The notes beneath the pieces were generated by a model, which saw only the letters and a list, made by a program, of their open reading frames with translations, had not been told where the DNA came from and ran no database searches. From the NCBI GenBank assembly GCA_963803975.1, contig CAWDOY010000047.1, positions 96,001 to 160,000 on the forward strand: a stretch of 64,000 nt of DNA. Reading direction: 5' to 3'. Both the position numbers and the translations under genes were made by a program. Positions 13,599 to 23,016 of this stretch are shown one piece after another; position 1 is the first letter of the stretch; the number at the start of each line of letters is the position of its first letter. The stretch comes from an uncultured delta proteobacterium. GTDB taxonomy: Bacteria > Desulfobacterota > WTBG01 > CAIYCZ01.

Positions 13599-14753
13599 CT
13601 ATTCTTTCTCCCAGTAGGGAAGAATGCGGTTTATAATGTACATGGTCACAAACGGCATGGCAAAAAGAATCAGCGCCACCAGCAGCCCTTCCCTGCCTAA
13701 AAAACTCGGCATATAACTGGTGAACCCCCGCAGGCTTTTTGAAAAAAGCTGCCCGCCGACAACCACATTCCAGCGCATGGCAAGCACCTGTATAAGCAGC
13801 AGCACCGATGAAATAATGCCCAGCGTATTGCGCGTTGATTCTTTGAGCTTCCAGAGAGAAACTATGCCCAGCATCACCATCGGGATGGTAGAGCAGACGA
13901 TCAACTGCAGAACGACATAGCTGAACTGCAGCCTGCCGCCGATGAGTTGGGAAATAGCCGACCAGGACTCCTCCCCTTCATAGCCCATGCTGAGAAGTTC
14001 CAGAAGTTCAAGGGTCACGTCGACAATAAAGAATCCCCACAGATAGCCGCAGAGTGACTGCATGCAGGCCGAGTCAACCGTCTTTCCCCTCAGCTTCATA
14101 ATAATGGCATATGATACGATAAGCACCGCGATGCCTGAAACGATTGCTGACATGAGAAAGATGACCGGCATCAGCGGCGTTGACCACCACGGATTTGATT
14201 TAAGCGAGCCGAACAGAAAACCCACATATCCATGCAGCACACACGCTGAGGGAATGCCAACGGCGGCAAGAAATGTTGTTATCTTATGATCCAGGTGCAG
14301 CGCCTTCTCCGACACGTCAAACACGCCCAGAGACAGCACAGAGTAGAATAATTTCTTCAGCCCAATGCTCTCCTGAGCCAGTCTCACCATATCCGGCCGG
14401 AATACAAACCAGATTTCAAGAGCCACAATAATCAGATAAAAAGTGTAGATGTAACCAAACCCTGACATGGCAGATGTGAACTTGGGTGTGAACATGATGT
14501 TGAACGCCCGCTCCGGATGGCCGAGATGAAAGAGAAGCGGTGTGCAGGCAAAAAGCAGGAACGAAAAGGCGGCAACAAGCGCAAACCTGGCAACAGGTTT
14601 AAGCTCTTCCCTGCCGAATACATGGTAGAGAGAAGAAACAATGAATGCCCCAGCGACAAGCCCGGTAATATACGGATACAGAACAATCAGCAGACTCCAG
14701 AGCACTTCCACTTCATTGGGATATAAAAACCCCTGGGTTACGGCCTCAAGCAT
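13599..14753 (-). CDS. NrfD/PsrC-family polytopic quinone-interacting membrane subunit
   Basis: YPYITGLVAGAF, HLGHPER, LHGYVGFLF and RWNVVVGGQ motifs; about 9-10 TM helices. Confidence 0.88.
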   Translation of the reverse strand: MLEAVTQGFLYPNEVEVLWSLLIVLYPYITGLVAGAFIVSSLYHVFGREELKPVARFALVAAFSFLLFACTPLLFHLGHPERAFNIMFTPKFTSAMSGFGYIYTFYLIIVALEIWFVFRPDMVRLAQESIGLKKLFYSVLSLGVFDVSEKALHLDHKITTFLAAVGIPSACVLHGYVGFLFGSLKSNPWWSTPLMPVIFLMSAIVSGIAVLIVSYAIIMKLRGKTVDSACMQSLCGYLWGFFIVDVTLELLELLSMGYEGEESWSAISQLIGGRLQFSYVVLQLIVCSTIPMVMLGIVSLWKLKESTRNTLGIISSVLLLIQVLAMRWNVVVGGQLFSKSLRGFTSYMPSFLGREGLLVALILFAMPFVTMYIINRILPYWEKE

Positions 14754-15499
14754 TATCGTACCTCCTTATCCAGGCCCACGTAAAATGTCTTCGGGCTGTT
14801 GCCGGTTTCCGGTTTGAGCACGCCGATCCGTTCTTCACGTAAAATCCGGGCAACCCGGCTTTCCGGGTCTTTCAGGCTGCCAAACAGCCGCGCTTCAACG
14901 GGACACACCACAACGCAGGCCGGCATAAGGCCCTTCTTTACCCGGTGATAACACCAGGTGCATTTATCAGCCGTTCGACGCTCGGGGTGAATGTAGCGCG
15001 CACCATACGGGCATGCCTGCACACAGTAGCCGCATCCCACACAGTGTTTCTCATCGACCAGCACCACACCCTCTTTGGTGGTATAGGTTGCACCCACCGG
15101 ACATACCTGAACGCAGTTAGCCTCGGTACAGTGGTTGCACAGCTTGGGAACAAAAAATGACTTTTCAATTTTTTCTTTTACTTCGGTATCTTTAAAACCA
15201 TGCACAGCGCCGTGGGGCGAGTCCACATAAACCGTATCGTCAGCAGTGATGATATATCTCTCAACCCAGGTCCGGAAGAACTCTTCAGGCACGTGGTTTT
15301 CAGTTTTGCATGCCTGTACACATTTGCCGCACCCGATACACCGGTGAGTATCCACTATAAACCCGTAGAGTTCATGCGATGAACCTTTCTGCATGGCCCT
15401 TCCCGCAGCAGGGAAAAAAGAGCCCACAGAAACCAGAATACCGCTCCCTAATAGAGTCCATCCTGTCTGTTTAATAAATTTTCTGCGATCTGCATTCAT
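14753..15499 (-). CDS. Tat-exported 4x[4Fe-4S] ferredoxin (NrfC/DmsB family)
   Basis: DRRKFIK Tat motif; CIGCGKCVQAC, CNHCTEANCVQVCP, CVGCGYCVQACP and CTWC...CVVVCP. Confidence 0.92.
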   Translation of the reverse strand: MNADRRKFIKQTGWTLLGSGILVSVGSFFPAAGRAMQKGSSHELYGFIVDTHRCIGCGKCVQACKTENHVPEEFFRTWVERYIITADDTVYVDSPHGAVHGFKDTEVKEKIEKSFFVPKLCNHCTEANCVQVCPVGATYTTKEGVVLVDEKHCVGCGYCVQACPYGARYIHPERRTADKCTWCYHRVKKGLMPACVVVCPVEARLFGSLKDPESRVARILREERIGVLKPETGNSPKTFYVGLDKEVR

Positions 15500-15547
15500 A
15501 TCGTTATCCCTTGTAAACACTCTTGTCCTGATATAATGCCACGTCTT

Positions 15548-16030
15548 TTACAGAGGCACATGCGGGTTATGGCAGTCAATGCATTTTAAGTCGGGCTCAA
15601 ATGCTTCTTCCTGGTCTTTCATGTGCTGGGCGAAGGAGTTTATTTGCGGAAGAAAATCAGGCCGGCCAATAACCTTTTCATGGCAGCTCATGCACGATTC
15701 CACCGTGGTGTCTCGGGGCACTGTATCTTTGGTATTCTTGTTGTGCGCCTGCCAGAATCCATGGCATGCTTCACAGGCAACCGCAGCATGACCCCCTGCC
15801 CGGGAGTCCTTGATTAATTTTTCATGGCACTTGGCACATTTTTCTGTGCCCTGATAGAGAGCGTACATGTTTTCCTGCTCTGCATCAGAATCGCCCCGGT
15901 GATAGCCGTACTGGTAACTTCCGTAGGTCCCGAAAGACTCGGGAACGAAAAAACCACGGACTATAAAAAAACCAATCACGACGGCTATCAGCACAACACA
16001 TAACCTGATGATATGATTAAAATGCCCCAT
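15548..16030 (-). CDS. Membrane-anchored tetraheme c-type cytochrome
   Basis: N-terminal TM helix; CAKCH, CEACH, CMSCH and CIDCH. Confidence 0.9.
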   Translation of the reverse strand: MGHFNHIIRLCVVLIAVVIGFFIVRGFFVPESFGTYGSYQYGYHRGDSDAEQENMYALYQGTEKCAKCHEKLIKDSRAGGHAAVACEACHGFWQAHNKNTKDTVPRDTTVESCMSCHEKVIGRPDFLPQINSFAQHMKDQEEAFEPDLKCIDCHNPHVPL

Positions 16031-16184
16031 GAATGCCTCTCAATATGTTGCAACTAATCTTCTTAAATGCCAATTTGGCAAAAGATCATTGAAATTGCGT
16101 TCGCTATTGCAGGATACCTGATATCCAACTAATTTTAATTCCTATACTTTTAAACCAGAAGGAGAAATAATTTAGTATATAATT

Positions 16185-16200
16185 AGCATGTACTGTGCCA
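16185..16200 (-). promoter_or_regulatory. Sigma54 promoter of the cytochrome c-nrfC-nrfD operon
   Basis: Minus strand TGGCACAGTACATGCT (GG-N10-GC), about 155 bp upstream of the start codon. Confidence 0.55.
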
Positions 16201-16387
16201 TAAAATACTATCCCTATGGTTTAGAAAATCCCTCAATTCCTCCTTACAAAGAGTCCGCCTTTTTTTAATGCTGGGTGTTTAGCAGGGATACCGGATAGTA
16301 TGTTGAGAGCAGAGTACAAACAAAAGATTATTTTTTCAAGTTAAATAGTAGCTGCTATTCTGCGACTGGCTCCAGGAACAAAGTTTC

Positions 16388-16417
16388 TTGACACTCGCGG
16401 TAAAACATGTTTAAATT
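16388..16417 (+). promoter_or_regulatory. Sigma70 promoter of tRNA-Pro
   Basis: TTGACA at 16388-16393, followed 17-18 nt later by TTAAAT/TAAATT. Confidence 0.5.
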
Positions 16418-16433
16418 CAATAAGTCCAACAAG

Positions 16434-16511
<78 letters not shown>

Positions 16512-16519
16512 GTAAAATC

Positions 16520-16552
16520 AAGCACTTAGCAGCACATGCTGAGTGCTTTTTT
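16520..16552 (+). terminator. Intrinsic terminator after the tRNA
   Basis: aagcacttagca-gcaca-tgctgagtgctt followed by a T-run. Confidence 0.7.
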
Positions 16553-16683
16553 AGTGTCCACTGTATAGTAATTGTATAGTAGACATGAGATGACAGTTAA
16601 TTTCTCACGCAAAAAAGCGGAGCCAATTAATTACTGACTCCGCTTTTGTTGTGTAAATTCAGTTTTTGCTATCCACGAACTCC

Positions 16684-18036
16684 CTAATCCCAAAACCCTA
16701 ATATAAGCCTCGGCGTTGCACTCACTGGCCCATGCATAGTTGAGTTGCCATTCAGGTCTATGTCTTCCAGTTTGTAGTAATAGGTCTTTCTGTTCTTCAC
16801 ATCCGTTATCAATAAACTCATAATGATGCACCTTGGATGGATGAACCTTGGGCGGGGATTAATGATGCATTTATTTTGGTGTATTTACCATCTTCTGATT
16901 CAGAGCGGTAGAGGTTGAAACCAGCGTTGTCGATTTCGGATTCTGTTGTCCATTGAATAATTTTTGCTTCTTTAGGTGTAGCAGTAAAAGAAGACAAATT
17001 AATGAGTGTTGCTGGTGCAGTTGTTGTGGTCGTAGATTGCTGTATAGTTGTAGTGGTTGATGTTGTTTCAGTCACATATTCATACACCCCCATATCATAA
17101 CCAGCACCTTGGGGTCTTTGAGTACCTTCTATATCAATAGATGGAGCGCCACTGCTCGTTCCACTATCAATACAGAGGGAAACAGGCTGCAGGTGGAAAT
17201 CTCCGGGCACCCAATAATCATCCCCTATAGATGCAGTACCATTAACATTCCAGAACCCGGCATAACAAATTGAGGGTTACTGCTAATTTCCCCGTGCCAG
17301 TCCATCCACCGTAATGTCTGAGTAGGAAACGGTAACGAAAATGCTCGAAATTGTATCGGGAAGTCCGTTTGCTGTATTTCCCCAGATTATTGTGTTAATG
17401 ACCAGAGCAGGGCCGCAGAATCTTCCGGCGCCTCTTGCATCGGAAAGTTCCGCCATTATCCGCTCTGTTTTGAGATATAGTACAATTCACAATGGTTGGT
17501 GAACCCTCGCTATATATTCCTCCTCCTCCATAAGCGCATAAATTACCACTAATAATACAATTTATAATAAGCGGAGCCCCGTCATAACAATAAATCCCTG
17601 CTCCATAGACTGAGCGTCCACCATATATAAAACAATTTGAAATAGTTGGTGAGGCGTTATAGCAACTTATATTACCTCCTTCGAAATTCAATCCATGAAC
17701 GATGGTAAAGCCATCAAGCACTGTGTCACGTCCCAGTCCTGAACCAAATGCTACAGCACTGGTGAAACCACTACTACTACTCTGTGCGGCATCAATAATA
17801 GTTCTGCCCGAACCATTCACTGATTTAACAATCAGCTTTTTGCTTACAATTATTGTCTCATGGTAGGTGCCATCATAGACTAAAATTGTATCTCCGGTGG
17901 TAGCAGCAGTTATTGCAGACTGTATAATGGTGAATGGCTTGCCACTTCCTACCTCAAGGGTTGCCGCATTTATGCTTGAAGAAACTGATATTACTATTAC
18001 CGCGACTGCTAAAAGAATGTTCTTTCGTGTTTTCAT
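16684..18036 (-). CDS. Exported right-handed beta-helix (pectin-lyase-like) protein with choice-of-anchor-Q-like segment, Thr-rich linker and shared C-terminal domain; several frameshifts
   Basis: Signal peptide; PFTIIQSAITAATTGDTILVYDGTYHETI; GGGIY/PTIVNCTIS repeats; GDFHLQPVSLCIDSG...DIEGTQRPQGAGYDMGVYEY; TLINLSSFTATP...YKLEDIDLNGNSTMHGPVSATPRLILGFWD* assembled across frames. Confidence 0.75.
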
Positions 18037-18051
18037 CTTTTGTTCCCTCCT

Positions 18052-18853
18052 CTAATTCACACTAATAGTTTTGTTAAATTTCTGGAATAGTCCCCAAACC
18101 CACTTGGTGTAGCACTCACCGGACCACGCATGGTTGACTTACCGTTCAGGTCTATGTCTTCCAGCTTGTAGTAGTAGGTTTTTCTGTTCTTCACTTCAGT
18201 ATCAATAAATTCATATGACGCACCCTGGGTGGATGAGCCTTGAGCAGGAATTAGTGAGTCATTGATCTTGATATAATCACCATCCTCTGTTTCAGAACGG
18301 TAGAGGTCGAAGCCAGCATTGCCAATTTCTGCCTCTGTTGACGTATTGAATAATGACTGTGCTGAATTGTAGGTGTAGCAGTAAAAGAAGACAAATTAAT
18401 GAGTGTTGGTGGTGTAGTTGTGGTGGTCGTAGATTGCTGTATGGTTGTTGTGGCGGCGGTATCACATATTACATCCCAATTTCCATATCCGCTTCCGTAA
18501 CACCGTTCAGGATGAGCGCCACACGTAGATGCTCCACCACCATGTATATTCCAGCAAAAAGTCCAGATGCCACTGATACTGACAAAGTTTGAACACTCAA
18601 GTCCCAAACCTTCGATATAGTCTGATTAACAACCGCTGGACCAAGCAGGTTGCTGGACCTTGCAAATACTGGATACTGGAATAATTGCTGAGTATGCTTC
18701 ATACGCAGCCTGCTGAGTTTTTGAGGTTTCGTTAGTTTGTCTGGACCCACTTCTGTCACCTGTCCACACAATGCTACATCCTGCTGATGCCTGCGTAATG
18801 TGAAAACCAAAGAGTATGAAAACAATCAGAAATAAAAAAATTATCTTTTTCAT
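18052..18853 (-). CDS. Exported Cys-rich protein with Thr linker and shared C-terminal domain; frameshifted
   Basis: RBS GAGGAGG and signal peptide ...QASA|GCSIVWTGD. Continues in ORF 18251-18607 (WDVICD-TTT-TLINLSSFTATP) and on to YKLEDIDLNGKSTMRGPVSATP. Confidence 0.72.
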
Positions 18854-18869
18854 AATTGTCCTCCTCTTG

Positions 18870-19640
18870 TTAATTTCTCAATACGAAAATCAATCGCGGT
18901 GTAACACTCACCGGCCCGTGTATGGTTGACTCTCCGTTCAGGTCTATATCTTCAAGTTTGTAGTAGGAGGTTTTTCTGTTCTCAACATCTCTATCAACAT
19001 ACTCATAAGATGCCCCTTGGGTGGATGAGCCCTGAGCAGGGATAAGCGAAGCGTTTATCTTGATGAAATCTCCATCCTTTGTTTCAGAACGGTAGAGATT
19101 AAAGCCAGCATTATCGGTTTCTGCTTCGGTGTTCCATTGCACAATAACTTTTCCAGATTTAGGTGTAGCAGTAAAAGAAGACAAATTAATGAGTGTTGCT
19201 GGTGTAGTTGTTGTGGTGGTGGTCTGCTGAATGGTGGTGGTGATGTTGTTACCACATATTACATCCCAGGTGCCAAGTCTTGTCGAGCACCTATCAGGAT
19301 TGAAGACATCAGGACAAACTTTATAATCCCAAGAGCCGTCTATACAAACGCTATAACCTGAACCACTCCGGTGACAACCAATACTGGAGATTTGACATTG
19401 GTCAGAAGTATTCCAATAAAAATTACAATTACAAAGGTCTAACTCACACTGCCATTGCAGGTCATTAAACAAAACCATAGATAATTCTTGTGCTGCTTGC
19501 GGGGTTCTTGATGTTTCATTTGTTGGCACTGAACCACTCAAATCACCTGTCCATACAATATTACATCCTGCTGATGCCTGCGCAATGTTAAAAACAAAGA
19601 GTCCGAAAACAATTAAAAATATAACAATAATCTTTTTCAT
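18870..19640 (-). CDS. Exported Cys-rich protein with Thr linker and shared C-terminal domain (intact copy)
   Basis: MKKIIVIFLIVFGLFVFNIAQASA|GCNIVWTGD...WDVICG-TTT-TLINLSSFTATPKSGKVIVQWNTEAETDNAGFNLYRS...YYKLEDIDLNGESTIHGPVSVTPRLIFVLRN*. Confidence 0.85.
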   Translation of the reverse strand: MKKIIVIFLIVFGLFVFNIAQASAGCNIVWTGDLSGSVPTNETSRTPQAAQELSMVLFNDLQWQCELDLCNCNFYWNTSDQCQISSIGCHRSGSGYSVCIDGSWDYKVCPDVFNPDRCSTRLGTWDVICGNNITTTIQQTTTTTTTPATLINLSSFTATPKSGKVIVQWNTEAETDNAGFNLYRSETKDGDFIKINASLIPAQGSSTQGASYEYVDRDVENRKTSYYKLEDIDLNGESTIHGPVSVTPRLIFVLRN

Positions 19641-19654
19641 AACTGCCCTCTTTC

Positions 19655-20379
19655 TTAATTTCTCAATCCAAATATCAACCCGGGGTTGCACTCACAGGGC
19701 CATGCATAGTTGACACTCCGTTCAGGTCTATGTCTTCAAGTTTATAGTAATAAGTCTTTCTGTTCTGGAATTCGATATCAGTAAACTCATAGATTAGCGC
19801 CTTGGGTGGGGGAGCCTTGTGCAGGGATCAGTGAGTGTTTATCTTGGTGTAGTTACCATCCTCTGATTCAGCGCGATAGATGTTAAAGCCGGCGTTGTCG
19901 GTTTCGGATTCGGTGGACCAAGCGAGAATAACGCTTTTTGACTTTGCATAAGCTTTAAAATCCCGCAGCGTAATCAGCGTGCTTGATTCGCAGGTGCTGT
20001 TGATACATTCATAGTTCCCCGCAGTGCACTGATACCCTTCACAAGTTTGAAGATAGCCCATGTCAATAACGCCAGATGTGCAGGTATTGTCTTTACTGCA
20101 GCAGCCCTGCTGAACTTCCGGCACATAGGTTTTAATAGGTTGCATAACCCCCCTGCAGATGTCGCTACAACACTTTTCCCCCGGATAAAAAGTACCTCCT
20201 GCATAATTTTCACAAAAGGAGGCTTCATTGAGTGGCGGGGTATCTCCACAACGATAACAGCCCATCATTGGCATATAATAATCGCACGCCCCGGTGTCCT
20301 GGGCATTTGATTTGCCGGATGTAACCAATAGAACAGGAAATATGATTGCAAGTAGAGCTATTATTCTGAGTTTTGCCAT
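19655..20379 (-). CDS. Exported Cys-rich protein (unrelated N-domain) with shared C-terminal domain; frameshifts in the C-domain
   Basis: RBS AAGGAGGAGG; signal peptide; 13 Cys; TLITLRDFKA...WSTESETDNAGFNIYRAE...; the tail YKLEDIDLNGVSTMHGPVSATP(R)LIFGLRN* lies in shifted frames. Confidence 0.78.
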
Positions 20380-20456
20380 GTTCCCTCCTCCTTTATAAAG
20401 GCGCTATTCTATCAATAATTCTCACCCTGTTTACCGTCTGACAGAGTTTTAATAAT

Positions 20457-20507
20457 CTATTTCCCTATTCCATAAATAAGCCGAGGCGTTGCTGATACCG
20501 GTCCATG
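20457..20507 (-). pseudogene. Orphan last 16 codons of the shared C-terminal domain
   Basis: Translates HGPVSATPRLIYGIGK*, with no upstream gene body. Confidence 0.75.
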
Positions 20508-20526
20508 CCTCTTAGGGGCTCTTGAT

Positions 20527-20568
20527 CAGTGGCCCGTGACCAGTGACTCGTGGCCAGTGACCCGTGGT
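20527..20568. repeat. Six tandem degenerate heptamers (CAGTGAC/CCGTGAC)
   Basis: cagtggc ccgtgac cagtgac tcgtggc cagtgac ccgtggt; the reverse-complement family occurs at 39424-39455. Confidence 0.7.
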
Positions 20569-20576
20569 TTGTGTTT

Positions 20577-20725
20577 TATTTAAGCCCCTGAGATCAGTCT
20601 TGGTGTTGCTGAGACCGGCCCGTGGAATGTGCCTGCTCCATTGTTATCAATATCTTCCAGCTTGTAGTAATAGGTCTTTCTGTTCTGGACCTTTGTGTCC
20701 GTGAACTCGTATGCCGCACCTGAGT
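20577..20725 (-). pseudogene. Orphan C-terminal half of the shared domain
   Basis: Translates GAAYEFTDTKVQNRKTYYYKLEDIDNNGAGTFHGPVSATPRLISG..., truncated at its 5' end. Confidence 0.8.
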
Positions 20726-20916
20726 GGAGTAACCTTTAGATGATTATCACATCTCAATTTTATACATTCGCACGGGATGGAGATTCAAGTACCGTTGTTC
20801 GACCATAGGGACTTTCCGGCCGCTCTTACTGACTTTTTTCATTTAATGGGCGCAAAATTTTCGCCCCATTATATAATTCCCAATAAAATACGCCAATCAA
20901 TGAGTGTCCCCAGTCT

Positions 20917-21111
20917 ATTGATAGAAACTTGCTTTCGGATAGAGAAAATATAGGCCGGTGGTGGTTGTGTGTCAACAATTTGTTAAAAGATATGGGCAGG
21001 GGTTAACCGAACAAAAATCAACATCTTGTGGTATGCCTTAAAGGCAGGAAAGTGCAGCTTATGTATCAGCAGCGATGAGAAGTTTAGCAGCCTAAATTCA
21101 TTGATGACTTC
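20917..21111 (-). repeat. Promoter-containing direct repeat, copy 1 (TTGACA-N17-TATATT at 20947-20975)
   Basis: Aligns with 22321-22518. Shared blocks are gaagtttagcagc-taaattcattgatgacttc, acatcttgtgg and tgtgtgtcaa. Confidence 0.8.
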
Positions 21112-21232
21112 TTTTGCAAAGCGCCAGTGACAGTTCAAAAAAATCATAGCAGTAGTAGCAACTCGGGCTCCATGATGCAGGGGGGTTCGTTATCAAAACC
21201 GGAAGATAACTCTCATAATTGCCTCAAAATAT

Positions 21233-22248
21233 TTAATCTAATTTTCTTCCGTCAGCCTGTAAGGCTGCAACTGCTTTTTTAATGTCTTCTTCTGCACCAC
21301 CCCTGATTTTAGGTTTTGCATAGCATCGAAGGGAGATATGAACATTTCCCGGATCTTCAATTAAATCTGCTGTAACAATATGCATGGACAGTGCTTTTCC
21401 ATTATATTTTTTTGTCCCAATAAAATATGTATTATAATAGGTTTTTTTATCTTCTTTACATTCAATGTCATTCTGTTTTGCCCAGTCATTTAATAATGAG
21501 GCTGCCTTGTCAAGATTTGCCTTAACACGCAAACGGGTAAAATAGCATCTTTTATCGCTTTGTGTATTTGTCCATGGCCTTATTGATAATTTGTTCTTAT
21601 TTTTATCAGTAAGATTTCCGGGCTGTAATGACTCCCAGAAGCTTCTATATTTTTTTACCTCTTTTTCTTGTAGCGGCGTAAGGGAGAGGATCTTTGTACG
21701 TATGTCATTTGCGAATGCCTCTACCCTTTCAGGAATAAGTGATTCCCACATGTCAAGCCCTGTCCATCCCACTTTATCTGCAGGCATGGTTTTTCCAAGG
21801 ATCCATATCAGCCTTGCATCATTTGAATTGAGATAACGGTTTACCTGGCGCCCGCCAAATGCCCCGAGTGTTATTGGTTTTAATTTGGGGAATTTTTCAA
21901 GTGTATCAAAGAAATAACTTCTCCCGCTCGAAAGATGAGGCGGTTTCCCGGGCATGTATATGATTATGGTTTCATCAATTTCACCGCAGGTAAGAAAGTA
22001 TGCAATTTCCTTTTTTGTAAGTTCATCATGGAACCTTTCAATAAATTTATATGTTGATTTATGCGGTTTTTCCCATCTTGTGTATCCGCCGATTATTACA
22101 TAGTCATAGGGCTCTACAGTTAAAACTTGATTATACATTTTTACATCCACATGATTTTCAAAGCCGATCAGAGCTTTTAACCAGTATGCAACATCAGCTG
22201 CTGAGCCGTATTGGGTTTCATAAGCTATTAGTCCTTTTTTTCTACCAT
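21233..22248 (-). CDS. Flavodoxin-domain (HemG/Flavodoxin_5-like) protein with C-terminal extension; 1-nt A-run frameshift near the start
   Basis: RBS AGGAGG and ATG 22248. Adding one A to the A7 run gives MVEKKGLIAYETQYGSAADVAYWLKALI...YDYVIIGGYTRWEK...IAYFLTC, which matches flavodoxin beta1/FMN-loop patterns. Confidence 0.7.
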
Positions 22249-22320
22249 GTTACTCCTCCTTGTTTTATATCTATGTTGTGGTTATCTAAGGAGTTGCAAG
22301 CAATATAAATGCAGCAAAGA

Positions 22321-22518
22321 ATTGACAGAAATTCGCTTTTGGATGAGGGAAATATAGGCTGGGGAGGATTGTGTGTCAATAAAAAATATGCCGCAAAATA
22401 TGTAAAGGATTATTGCGACAAAAATCTACATCTTGTGGTGGGCATTGAACATTGAAAAGTGTAGACTAGTGTATCAACAGCGATAGAAGTTTAGCAGCTT
22501 AAATTCATTGATGACTTC
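22321..22518 (-). repeat. Promoter-containing direct repeat, copy 2 (TTGACA-N17-TATATT at 22351-22379)
   Basis: Aligns with 20917-21111. Confidence 0.8.
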
Positions 22519-22587
22519 ATCTGGTAATATGCAATTGTCTGCTACGATCAAAATCGTGATTTTTTGTTTATCGTTAAAGCTCCCGAT

Positions 22588-23016
22588 TTATGTCGTCGTC
22601 TCGGCACTGGTAAAGCCGGTAAAAACCACCGGGATGATTTGAGAGTATTCAAAGAGAATTACACCCGTTCCGGCAATAAATGCTGTTGGTTCAAAGGAGG
22701 AACCAACCAGAAGCATAATGATGTCGCCTGTTTTGGTTCCGATTTTAGCATTAAGCGAGATATAGGCGCCTGTAAACAGGCTCAAGACGGTAACGTAAAA
22801 TCCATCACCCTTAAAACTTGAAATAGTAAGACCGCCGGTATCGCTGAATAAAACCGGTGAGCTGAAAACATCCAGTGAGCAGACGAAATAGCAGACGTAC
22901 TCATTGCCGGTAACAACATTCGGGCCAATACTGTTTTCAGCACGGGCGGTGCTTATGAGTAAACCACCTGCGAGAAGCATACAGCACAATGTAATTTTTA
23001 TTATTTTTCTGTTCAC
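22588..23016 (-). CDS. Hypothetical exported beta-rich protein
   Basis: RBS GGAGG and GTG 23016; signal peptide ending TARA|E. Confidence 0.65.
   Translation of the reverse strand: MNRKIIKITLCCMLLAGGLLISTARAENSIGPNVVTGNEYVCYFVCSLDVFSSPVLFSDTGGLTISSFKGDGFYVTVLSLFTGAYISLNAKIGTKTGDIIMLLVGSSFEPTAFIAGTGVILFEYSQIIPVVFTGFTSAETTT

Follow-up and report, generated by a model that had tools for sequence, protein, structure and literature searches.

A C-terminal domain shared by exported proteins of an uncultured Desulfobacterota lineage and its association with PorU-like C25 peptidases

An array of exported proteins with a common tail

The window considered here is a 64-kb stretch of DNA from the genome of an uncultured Desulfobacterota lineage (G000, 98% complete); coordinates are positions in this window unless a contig or locus is named. 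Four minus-strand genes follow one another in it at 16684–20379, all ending in the same domain of approximately 106 amino acids. We describe this array, the occurrence of its terminal domain in other proteins and genomes, and the association of the domain with C25 peptidases resembling PorU from type IX secretion systems (T9SS). By analogy with PorU, the domain probably serves as a sorting signal, and it is called the sorting domain in what follows.

Read in the direction of transcription, gene 1 (19655–20379, minus strand, as are the other three) combines a signal peptide, a Cys-rich passenger and the sorting domain (~19655–19980), with no Thr-rich linker. Gene 2 (18870–19640; 256 amino acids), an intact open reading frame (ORF), joins a signal peptide, a hypervariable Cys-rich passenger (19248–19568), a Thr-rich linker and the sorting domain (18876–19196). 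Gene 3 (18052–18853) has the same layout (sorting domain at ~18090–18405), its passenger being ~71% identical to those of P0004, P0064 and P0070. Lastly, gene 4 (16684–18036) carries between signal peptide and Thr-rich linker a parallel beta-helix and a choice-of-anchor Q region (NF041518, 42.4 bits for a cut-off of 25), and ends in the sorting domain at ~16690–17009. Genes 2 and 3 have passengers that are paralogues of each other, both Cys-rich, to which the Cys-rich domain of gene 1 is unrelated. Each gene starts with a hydrophobic signal-peptide-like segment (basic–hydrophobic–AxA-like, judged by eye and with no predictor), and DNA identity among the four copies reaches ~77–84% over their aligned parts, far beyond chance.

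Most of this had been anticipated by the original prediction, which described four consecutive minus-strand genes 14–16 bp apart with one C-terminal domain (the gaps are 14, 16 and 15 bp when stops are taken from shifted frames), a Sec signal peptide on each (in agreement with our inspection of the N-termini), a beta-helix, two paralogous Cys-rich domains and one unrelated Cys-rich domain as passengers, and a Thr-rich linker ‘usually’ (genes 2–4). The order, passengers and shared tail of the genes stand as described there, but genes 1, 3 and 4 are not intact as assembled: gene 2 is the sole intact ORF of the array, and frameshifts split the other three. In gene 4, single bases at 17253, 17443 and 17445 are lacking that are present in near-identical contigs of 3/3 DNA runs; further bases absent from the window occur in contigs at 17312 (2/3 DNA runs) and 17287 (1/3), and an extra window base at 16805 is missing from near-identical contigs of 2/3 DNA runs. 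The sequencing runs covered at most 0.16 of the stretch, and contig coverage sufficed for gene 4, not for genes 1 and 3. Full-length relatives are known for all four genes (P0088, 64% identical, for gene 1; P0118 for gene 2; P0004, P0064 and P0070 for gene 3; P0072 and P0073 for gene 4). Among ORFs of same-genus and same-family genomes that do not contain the domain, a set holding some shadow ORFs, 12/64 are spread over two or more frames of the G000 assembly, and one of these is presumably a DnaB-like gene. Because contigs carry the missing bases, full-length relatives exist and other ORFs are also split, the frameshifts are probably assembly or sequencing errors.

Upstream of gene 1 lie two remnants of the domain, both on the minus strand and with no gene in front: its last 16 codons and stop at 20457–20507, and its C-terminal 46 codons and stop at 20580–20720. 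Since these ‘orphans’ are fragments, the six tail copies in 4 kb counted previously are in fact four copies and two remnants (46 and 16 residues), the latter likely to have arisen through recombination between repeated tails.

In the passenger family of genes 2 and 3, constant ends enclose a hypervariable Cys-rich middle part, and the end motif of the family was found in 36 proteins among 120 close hits. The gene 2 passenger is modelled with confidence (predicted local distance difference test, pLDDT, of 90), and its fold has no clear solved match (best Z 5.3; none by Foldseek at E ≤ 0.001), which is no proof of a new fold. The combination of variable heads with a constant tail suggests diversifying surface proteins.

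The array represents a small part of what the genome contains. A profile search of G000 yielded 40 loci on 20 contigs, i.e. 39 after removal of one generic FN3 lipoprotein, 14 of these 39 being split or partial. Their passengers, scanned in 28 proteins, include SdrD-B, RHS, FG-GAP, Lcl, PQQ-like, metallophosphoesterase and ferrochelatase-like domains, and many belong to no family. All 21 relatives searched have the domain, with 1–47 matches each. The idea of a constant C-terminal module on exchangeable passengers is thus borne out by 39 loci with unrelated passengers, and the domain is not limited to one tandem duplication. The domain is C-terminal in 117/119 close homologues and in 63/68 copies of its own order; outside that order it is often internal or followed by further tags.

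No Pfam or NCBIfam model exceeded its cut-off for the domain in the array proteins or in 55 aligned domains. Two of the 55 members touch PF00041 (best E 0.005), none being seen to reach the Pfam cut-off, and the best hit of a PDB sequence search had an E-value of only 0.042. The AlphaFold2 model of the domain alone is a self-contained beta-sandwich (pLDDT 92), best matched by FN3 domains such as Ihog FNIII (2ic2; Z 11.2, root-mean-square deviation 2.7 Å, 105 residues aligned). The best 50 structural matches are all FN3-type; the solved C-terminal domain (CTD) of T9SS cargo is not among them, but may nevertheless share the fold. In a whole-library profile search, 29,888 proteins were retrieved at E ≤ 1e-10 and 1,875 at E ≤ 1e-30, numbers which are not family sizes because multi-FN3 repeat proteins occupy the top ranks.

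Conservation along these proteins changes sharply: an unconserved linker gives way to a Pro or small residue and then to the motif Thr-[Ala/Leu/Val]-[Ile/Val]-x-Leu-x-x-Phe-x-Ala. Its first Thr is present in 80–96% of own-lineage copies, 84% of distant loci and 48% of representatives, Leu, Ile, Pro or Val replacing it in many related copies. Conservation is also high in the body behind the motif, where polar residues (Thr, Glu, Arg and Asp) are invariant, and the end of the domain is amphipathic and conserved.

The original prediction regarded the domain as lineage-specific, which does not hold, as it is also found in Chloroflexota, Planctomycetota, Acidobacteriota, Gammaproteobacteria, Zixibacteria and others. 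Domain records come from Anaerolineae, Caldilineaceae, Brocadia, Electrothrix, Thiomargarita, Holophagaceae, Nitrospirae, Schekmanbacteria and Zixibacteria, and its Atlas neighbours include unnamed clusters in Acidobacteriota, Chloroflexota and Pseudomonadota. The earlier statement that a similar module precedes the CTD in bacteria of the Fibrobacteres–Chlorobi–Bacteroidetes (FCB) type proved right: TIGR04183 lies over cut-off directly behind the domain in L085 and L088, and Atlas neighbours with PF18962 occur in Cloacimonadota, Ignavibacteriota and Bacteroidota clusters. Among 63 distant copies, at most 10 residues follow the domain in 12, 11–60 in 31, 61–150 in 11 and more in nine. What follows may be a short tag, a membrane helix, a tail resembling the CFI-box, a second domain or a T9SS CTD, and in giant fusions it is a whole C25. 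A second start motif, on its own, occurs in 7/29 short tails (five from Chloroflexota loci and two from unnamed proteins), with a hydrophobic stretch and then basic residues behind it, as classic sorting signals are laid out. Giant fusions of passenger, domain and C25 were found at L083, L090, L092, L095 and L135 and in the Planctomycetota genomes G501, G506, G542, G555, G626 and G674.

Association of the domain with C25 peptidases

Two C25 peptidase genes were detected in G000. The main one (G000:C3:187616–194078; L131) matches PF01364 with 325 bits, and its best solved match is PorU (6za2, E 7e-16). It covers positions 8–740 of the 1095 of NF033707, PorU-type N-terminal domains included, with 285 bits for a cut-off of 420, and has no CTD of its own; we therefore designate it as PorU-like and not as PorU. 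The His/Cys dyad aligns with that of PorU and is invariant in 41/41 aligned C25 cores. This gene stands within a cassette of radical SAM/SPASM, PqqD, HprK-like kinase and S26-like genes conserved across phyla, beside genes that we take to be efp and epmA. Around 46 C25 loci, picked partly for a domain gene nearby, neighbours were the sorting domain (24 loci), S26-like proteins (21), HprK-like kinase (19), PqqD (15) and radical SAM (15), with what is presumably a nucleotidyltransferase-like gene at 9/46. The cassette beside C25 is also present in Electrothrix, Brocadia, Chloroflexota and Holophagaceae.

The second C25 (G000:C18:5074–9314; L007) is intact in G003 (L118:5760–9783). The gene after it encodes a signal peptide, the sorting domain, a Thr linker and CFI-box-CTERM, i.e. 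an N-terminal and possibly anchored form of the domain. That this C18 copy might be the C-terminus of the second C25 itself was ruled out, the intact G003 locus placing it N-terminally in the next gene. Short extreme C-terminal tags are common to cargo and C25 in Chloroflexota (L073, L074, L079, L149 and L159–L164) and in Electrothrix (L070/L147). A second C-terminal domain of ~100–130 amino acids ends C3-type C25s (L119, L125, L126, L128 and L129) and also lies behind the sorting domain in L063, L064, L068 and L089; it had no NCBIfam match in the proteins scanned and is possibly another sorting module.

To compare the distribution of the two partners, each genome sample was searched twice, once with the domain profile (E ≤ 1e-15) and once with PF01364 (E ≤ 1e-10). 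In Chloroflexota (201 genomes), C25 is present in 30/30 domain-positive versus 3/171 domain-negative genomes; the corresponding values are 14/16 versus 12/235 in Desulfobacterota (251 genomes), 8/8 versus 12/234 in Desulfobacterota outside the domain's own order and 14/14 versus 94/187 in Planctomycetota (201 genomes). The Planctomycetota values indicate that the domain implies C25 and not the reverse. Distant genomes chosen by the domain alone carry C25 in 26/27 cases. The two partners are also physically linked: a domain gene is fused to C25 or lies at most 6 kb away in 7/8 Desulfobacterota outside the own order and 16/30 Chloroflexota, among the matches listed, and in 13/14 Planctomycetota. 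This pattern is repeated in three phyla despite the inflation of counts by kinship.

Within the own order, Pfam detected C25 in 12/21 genomes, and the copy of G002 was later found cut by contig ends. Joint loss is visible in G004, G005, G013 and G019, where the epmA block is assembled without the C25 cassette and only 1–7 domain matches remain. Moreover, the first Thr of the motif is found in 0/12 copies of the C25-negative G005, G013, G014, G017 and G020 versus 21/28 in G000. Several large exported proteins (G000:C39 and C41, i.e. L013 and L014, and L176, L178 and L179) carry a motif-less domain, one of them with a weak ferrochelatase match; these proteins are retained by relatives in which C25 was not detected.

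The components of T9SS show another distribution. PorV was detected in 2/34 and SprA in 2/35 genomes, both times G280 and G283, where TIGR04183 follows the domain; the CTD thus goes with SprA and PorV, and the sorting domain with C25. Neither SprA nor PorV was found in G000 or six relatives from its phylum by the same searches that match G280 and G283. TIGR04183 and PF18962 had no match in the array proteins, the 55 aligned domains or G000 (where controls were silent; TIGR04183 does match L085 and L088), exosortase (PF09721) was not found in G000 by a search whose control matched, and no array protein has a PEP-CTERM-type tail (motif, membrane helix and basic end). These family-model scans and the inspection of the tails agree with the earlier statement that array proteins bear neither a T9SS CTD nor PEP-CTERM. 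Of the co-occurring translocon or peptidase that the original prediction proposed to look for by phylogenetic profiling, a PorU-like C25 peptidase was found, and no T9SS translocon.

Proposed function of the shared domain

PorU offers the closest model for these observations. In Porphyromonas gingivalis, PorU is proposed to cut ahead of the CTD, usually before a small residue, the cargo being passed on to an amine (PMC4560394), and in Prevotella intermedia determined and predicted cut sites are described in the linker preceding the folded CTD (PMC11969387). By analogy, we consider it probable that the sorting domain is cut just upstream by a PorU-like C25 and swapped for an envelope anchor. 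Passengers would be exported by Sec, as their signal-peptide-like N-termini suggest, with one folded domain serving many unrelated passengers, a pattern directly observed. The conserved motif at the Thr boundary would represent the cut site, by analogy with PorU. The partnership with C25 is visible as co-occurrence, adjacency, fusion and joint loss, and C25 would recognize the domain physically. The freed end of the passenger might then be joined to an amine-bearing envelope acceptor, as for PorU, rather than released by plain hydrolysis; this acceptor is perhaps, speculatively, a product of the kinase/PqqD/radical SAM/S26-like/nucleotidyltransferase cassette beside C25. As the type IX translocon was not found, the cargo may stay periplasmic or exit by another route, possibly through one of the three secretins of G000, and the array would be a variable island of cargo genes. 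More tentatively, C25, domain and cassette could constitute a stand-alone covalent surface-attachment system, the domain being a true signal for PorU-family transpeptidases apart from the type IX signal. It is conceivable, to the same tentative degree, that such a system spans Desulfobacterota, cable, anammox and giant sulfur bacteria and Chloroflexota, the type IX CTD having joined it only in FCB-type bacteria.

A number of observations weigh against cleavage by C25. The residue ahead of the first Thr is Pro in 33–52% of copies only, and half of the domain-negative Planctomycetota carry C25. Related genomes are not independent, and co-occurrence counts overstate the number of events accordingly. 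As regards the loss of the first Thr, G014, G017 and G020 are only 76–85% complete, and the C25-positive comparison set (19/20 with first Thr) consists of top-scoring copies and is biased, only G000 being unbiased. No C25 was found by Pfam or our own profile in G008, which has 31 domain matches and retains the first Thr in 14/20 copies; an assembly gap is likely there, without being proven, because the epmA orthologue flanking the C25 block is missing too. None was found either in G269, with its single domain copy. C25-negative relatives keep motif-less copies, and the body of the domain must therefore have some role independent of C25. In addition, the domain directly follows the signal peptide in L010, L118:8866–9783, L077 and L164, ends a C25 itself in L149 and occurs as tandem copies, placements which misfit a tail that is cut and discarded. 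Finally, other signals could be served by C25: CFI-box-CTERM has 31 matches in G000, 13 of them over cut-off, and an uncatalogued second domain ends the main G000 C25.

Several of these points would be expected if the domain were never cleaved and bound the envelope non-covalently, in the manner of S-layer homology (SLH) or dockerin modules, with C25 belonging to the same envelope system, in which it would make or process the binding partner of the domain or act on other tags. The N-terminal, tandem and C25-terminal placements, the well-conserved body with its polar invariant residues, the survival of motif-less copies without C25 and the other candidate signals of G000 all agree with such a module, as does the fact that in the own order no element behind the domain could serve as a membrane anchor. 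We regard it as unlikely all the same: the first Thr is missing where C25 was not found (0/12), the start motif recurs alone ahead of a membrane helix, giant fusions set the domain between passenger and C25, and many distant copies already have a membrane anchor or CTD after the domain.

Other functions appear much less probable than a binding module. FN3 domains often stack in chains, and the strictly terminal position in the own order, the conserved amphipathic end and the three secretins might indicate a polymerization module of a lattice or fibre, or an export signal for another outer-membrane route such as type II secretion. Polymerization, also proposed in the original prediction, finds no support in the results. 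Either role is improbable for a predicted self-contained sandwich (pLDDT 92) and leaves the C25 linkage unexplained, and where T9SS exists a true export CTD follows the domain. GAIN and SEA domains cleave themselves by an N-to-O acyl shift, and the prevalence of Thr at a sharp boundary (80–96% of own-lineage copies, 84% of distant loci) might point to the same reaction at the first Thr, C25 having a separate job; this is more improbable still, since many related copies have Leu, Ile, Pro or Val instead of Thr (retained in 48% of representatives) and the adjacency or fusion to an intact C25 is again left unexplained. Frameshifts in 3/4 genes and two remnants upstream are what decaying genes, duplicated locally in tandem, would leave if they were part of no system, a view to which we give next to no credit in the face of 39 loci genome-wide, presence in 21/21 relatives and several phyla, full-length relatives and contigs with the missing bases. 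As an account of the domain, decay is refuted by this genome-wide and cross-phylum spread, and could concern only the state of this array. An outer-membrane function also fits poorly with the presence of the domain in 30/201 Chloroflexota, which one report regards as devoid of outer-membrane biogenesis genes (10.1101/2025.08.19.671072).

The pairing of tails with a peptidase, and PorU itself, are already known; what appears undescribed is this domain, how widely it occurs and that it does not depend on T9SS, as open full-text literature (main texts, without supplements or subscription papers) yielded no description of the domain or of PorU-like sorting outside T9SS. An enzyme of this kind, PorU-like and served by an uncatalogued signal of its own in other phyla, Chloroflexota among them, would add one more general means of fixing proteins to the envelope, with a cut site predicted to be readable from sequence. 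Candidate surface proteins are hereby named in the much-studied Electrothrix, Brocadia and Thiomargarita. In an estuarine study, C25 accounts for 41–45% of signal-peptide-bearing peptidase genes, interpreted as degradative endopeptidases (PMC6752024); some of these may be anchoring enzymes instead, and on the more tentative view of a stand-alone attachment system part of the sediment ‘gingipain’ genes counted as food-degrading peptidases would be sortases.

Setting of the array and comparison with known systems

A tRNA-Pro(GGG) gene at 16435–16511 (plus strand) is convergent with the array, as the original prediction had pointed out, but the link is unspecific: an island peculiar to tRNA-Pro was rejected, tRNAs of several kinds being found near 5/21 G000 regions (the window and 20 loci). 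The GC content is 0.39–0.45 at 16001–23000 versus ~0.50 across the genome, and the tRNA probably marks the edge of a low-GC variable island, outside the system. The array is one of several cargo-gene clusters in such low-GC islands. Upstream of it, a repeat of ~230 bp with a predicted strong promoter (20901–21130, minus strand; 11/12 match to the sigma-70 consensus at 20975–20947) has matches at 43 G000 sites. This repeat, also found at 22321–22523 (minus strand), includes a near-palindrome and sits before many unrelated, often exported genes; a mobile promoter cassette is one candidate reading of it, a leader common to a regulon another. A flavodoxin-domain protein (PF12724, 28.3 bits) is encoded at 21233–22150 (minus strand), upstream of the array and behind another copy of the repeat. 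Past the tRNA, at 13599–16030 (minus strand), lie genes that we take from their translations to encode cytochrome c-like, 4Fe-4S and NrfD-like membrane proteins.

Compared with known families, the sorting domain has the predicted fold of FN3 (PF00041; Ihog FNIII 2ic2 and Clostridium thermocellum Fn3-like 3mpc), but only 12–18% identity to it, and here a single terminal copy is usual, opened by a conserved start motif of its own. CFI-box-CTERM (NF041770) is likewise an expanded C-terminal tag of the same genome and ends the domain-starting gene beside the second C25, whereas its sequence is unrelated and it is absent from the array; a bioRxiv paper on Cys-containing signals makes no mention of PorU, C25, T9SS or CFI.

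As in LPXTG/sortase, PEP-CTERM/exosortase, GlyGly-CTERM/rhombosortase and MYXO-CTERM, many tails are paired here with one peptidase, and some copies, mostly from Chloroflexota, add a motif, a hydrophobic stretch and basic residues similar to these short signals. In contrast to them, the tail is a folded domain of 106 amino acids with no membrane helix in the own order. The resemblance to T9SS and PorU extends further, since both systems place a signal peptide, a passenger, a linker and a folded C-terminal beta-sandwich on dozens of proteins, and in both the C25 enzyme carries PorU-type domains at its N-terminus together with the His/Cys pair. However, SprA and PorV were not found here, C25 remains under the PorU cut-off and lacks the C-terminal part of PorU, and no sequence similarity between the sorting domain and the CTD was detectable (hhalign probability 0.6%); in genomes that do possess T9SS, the sorting domain and the CTD stand in tandem.

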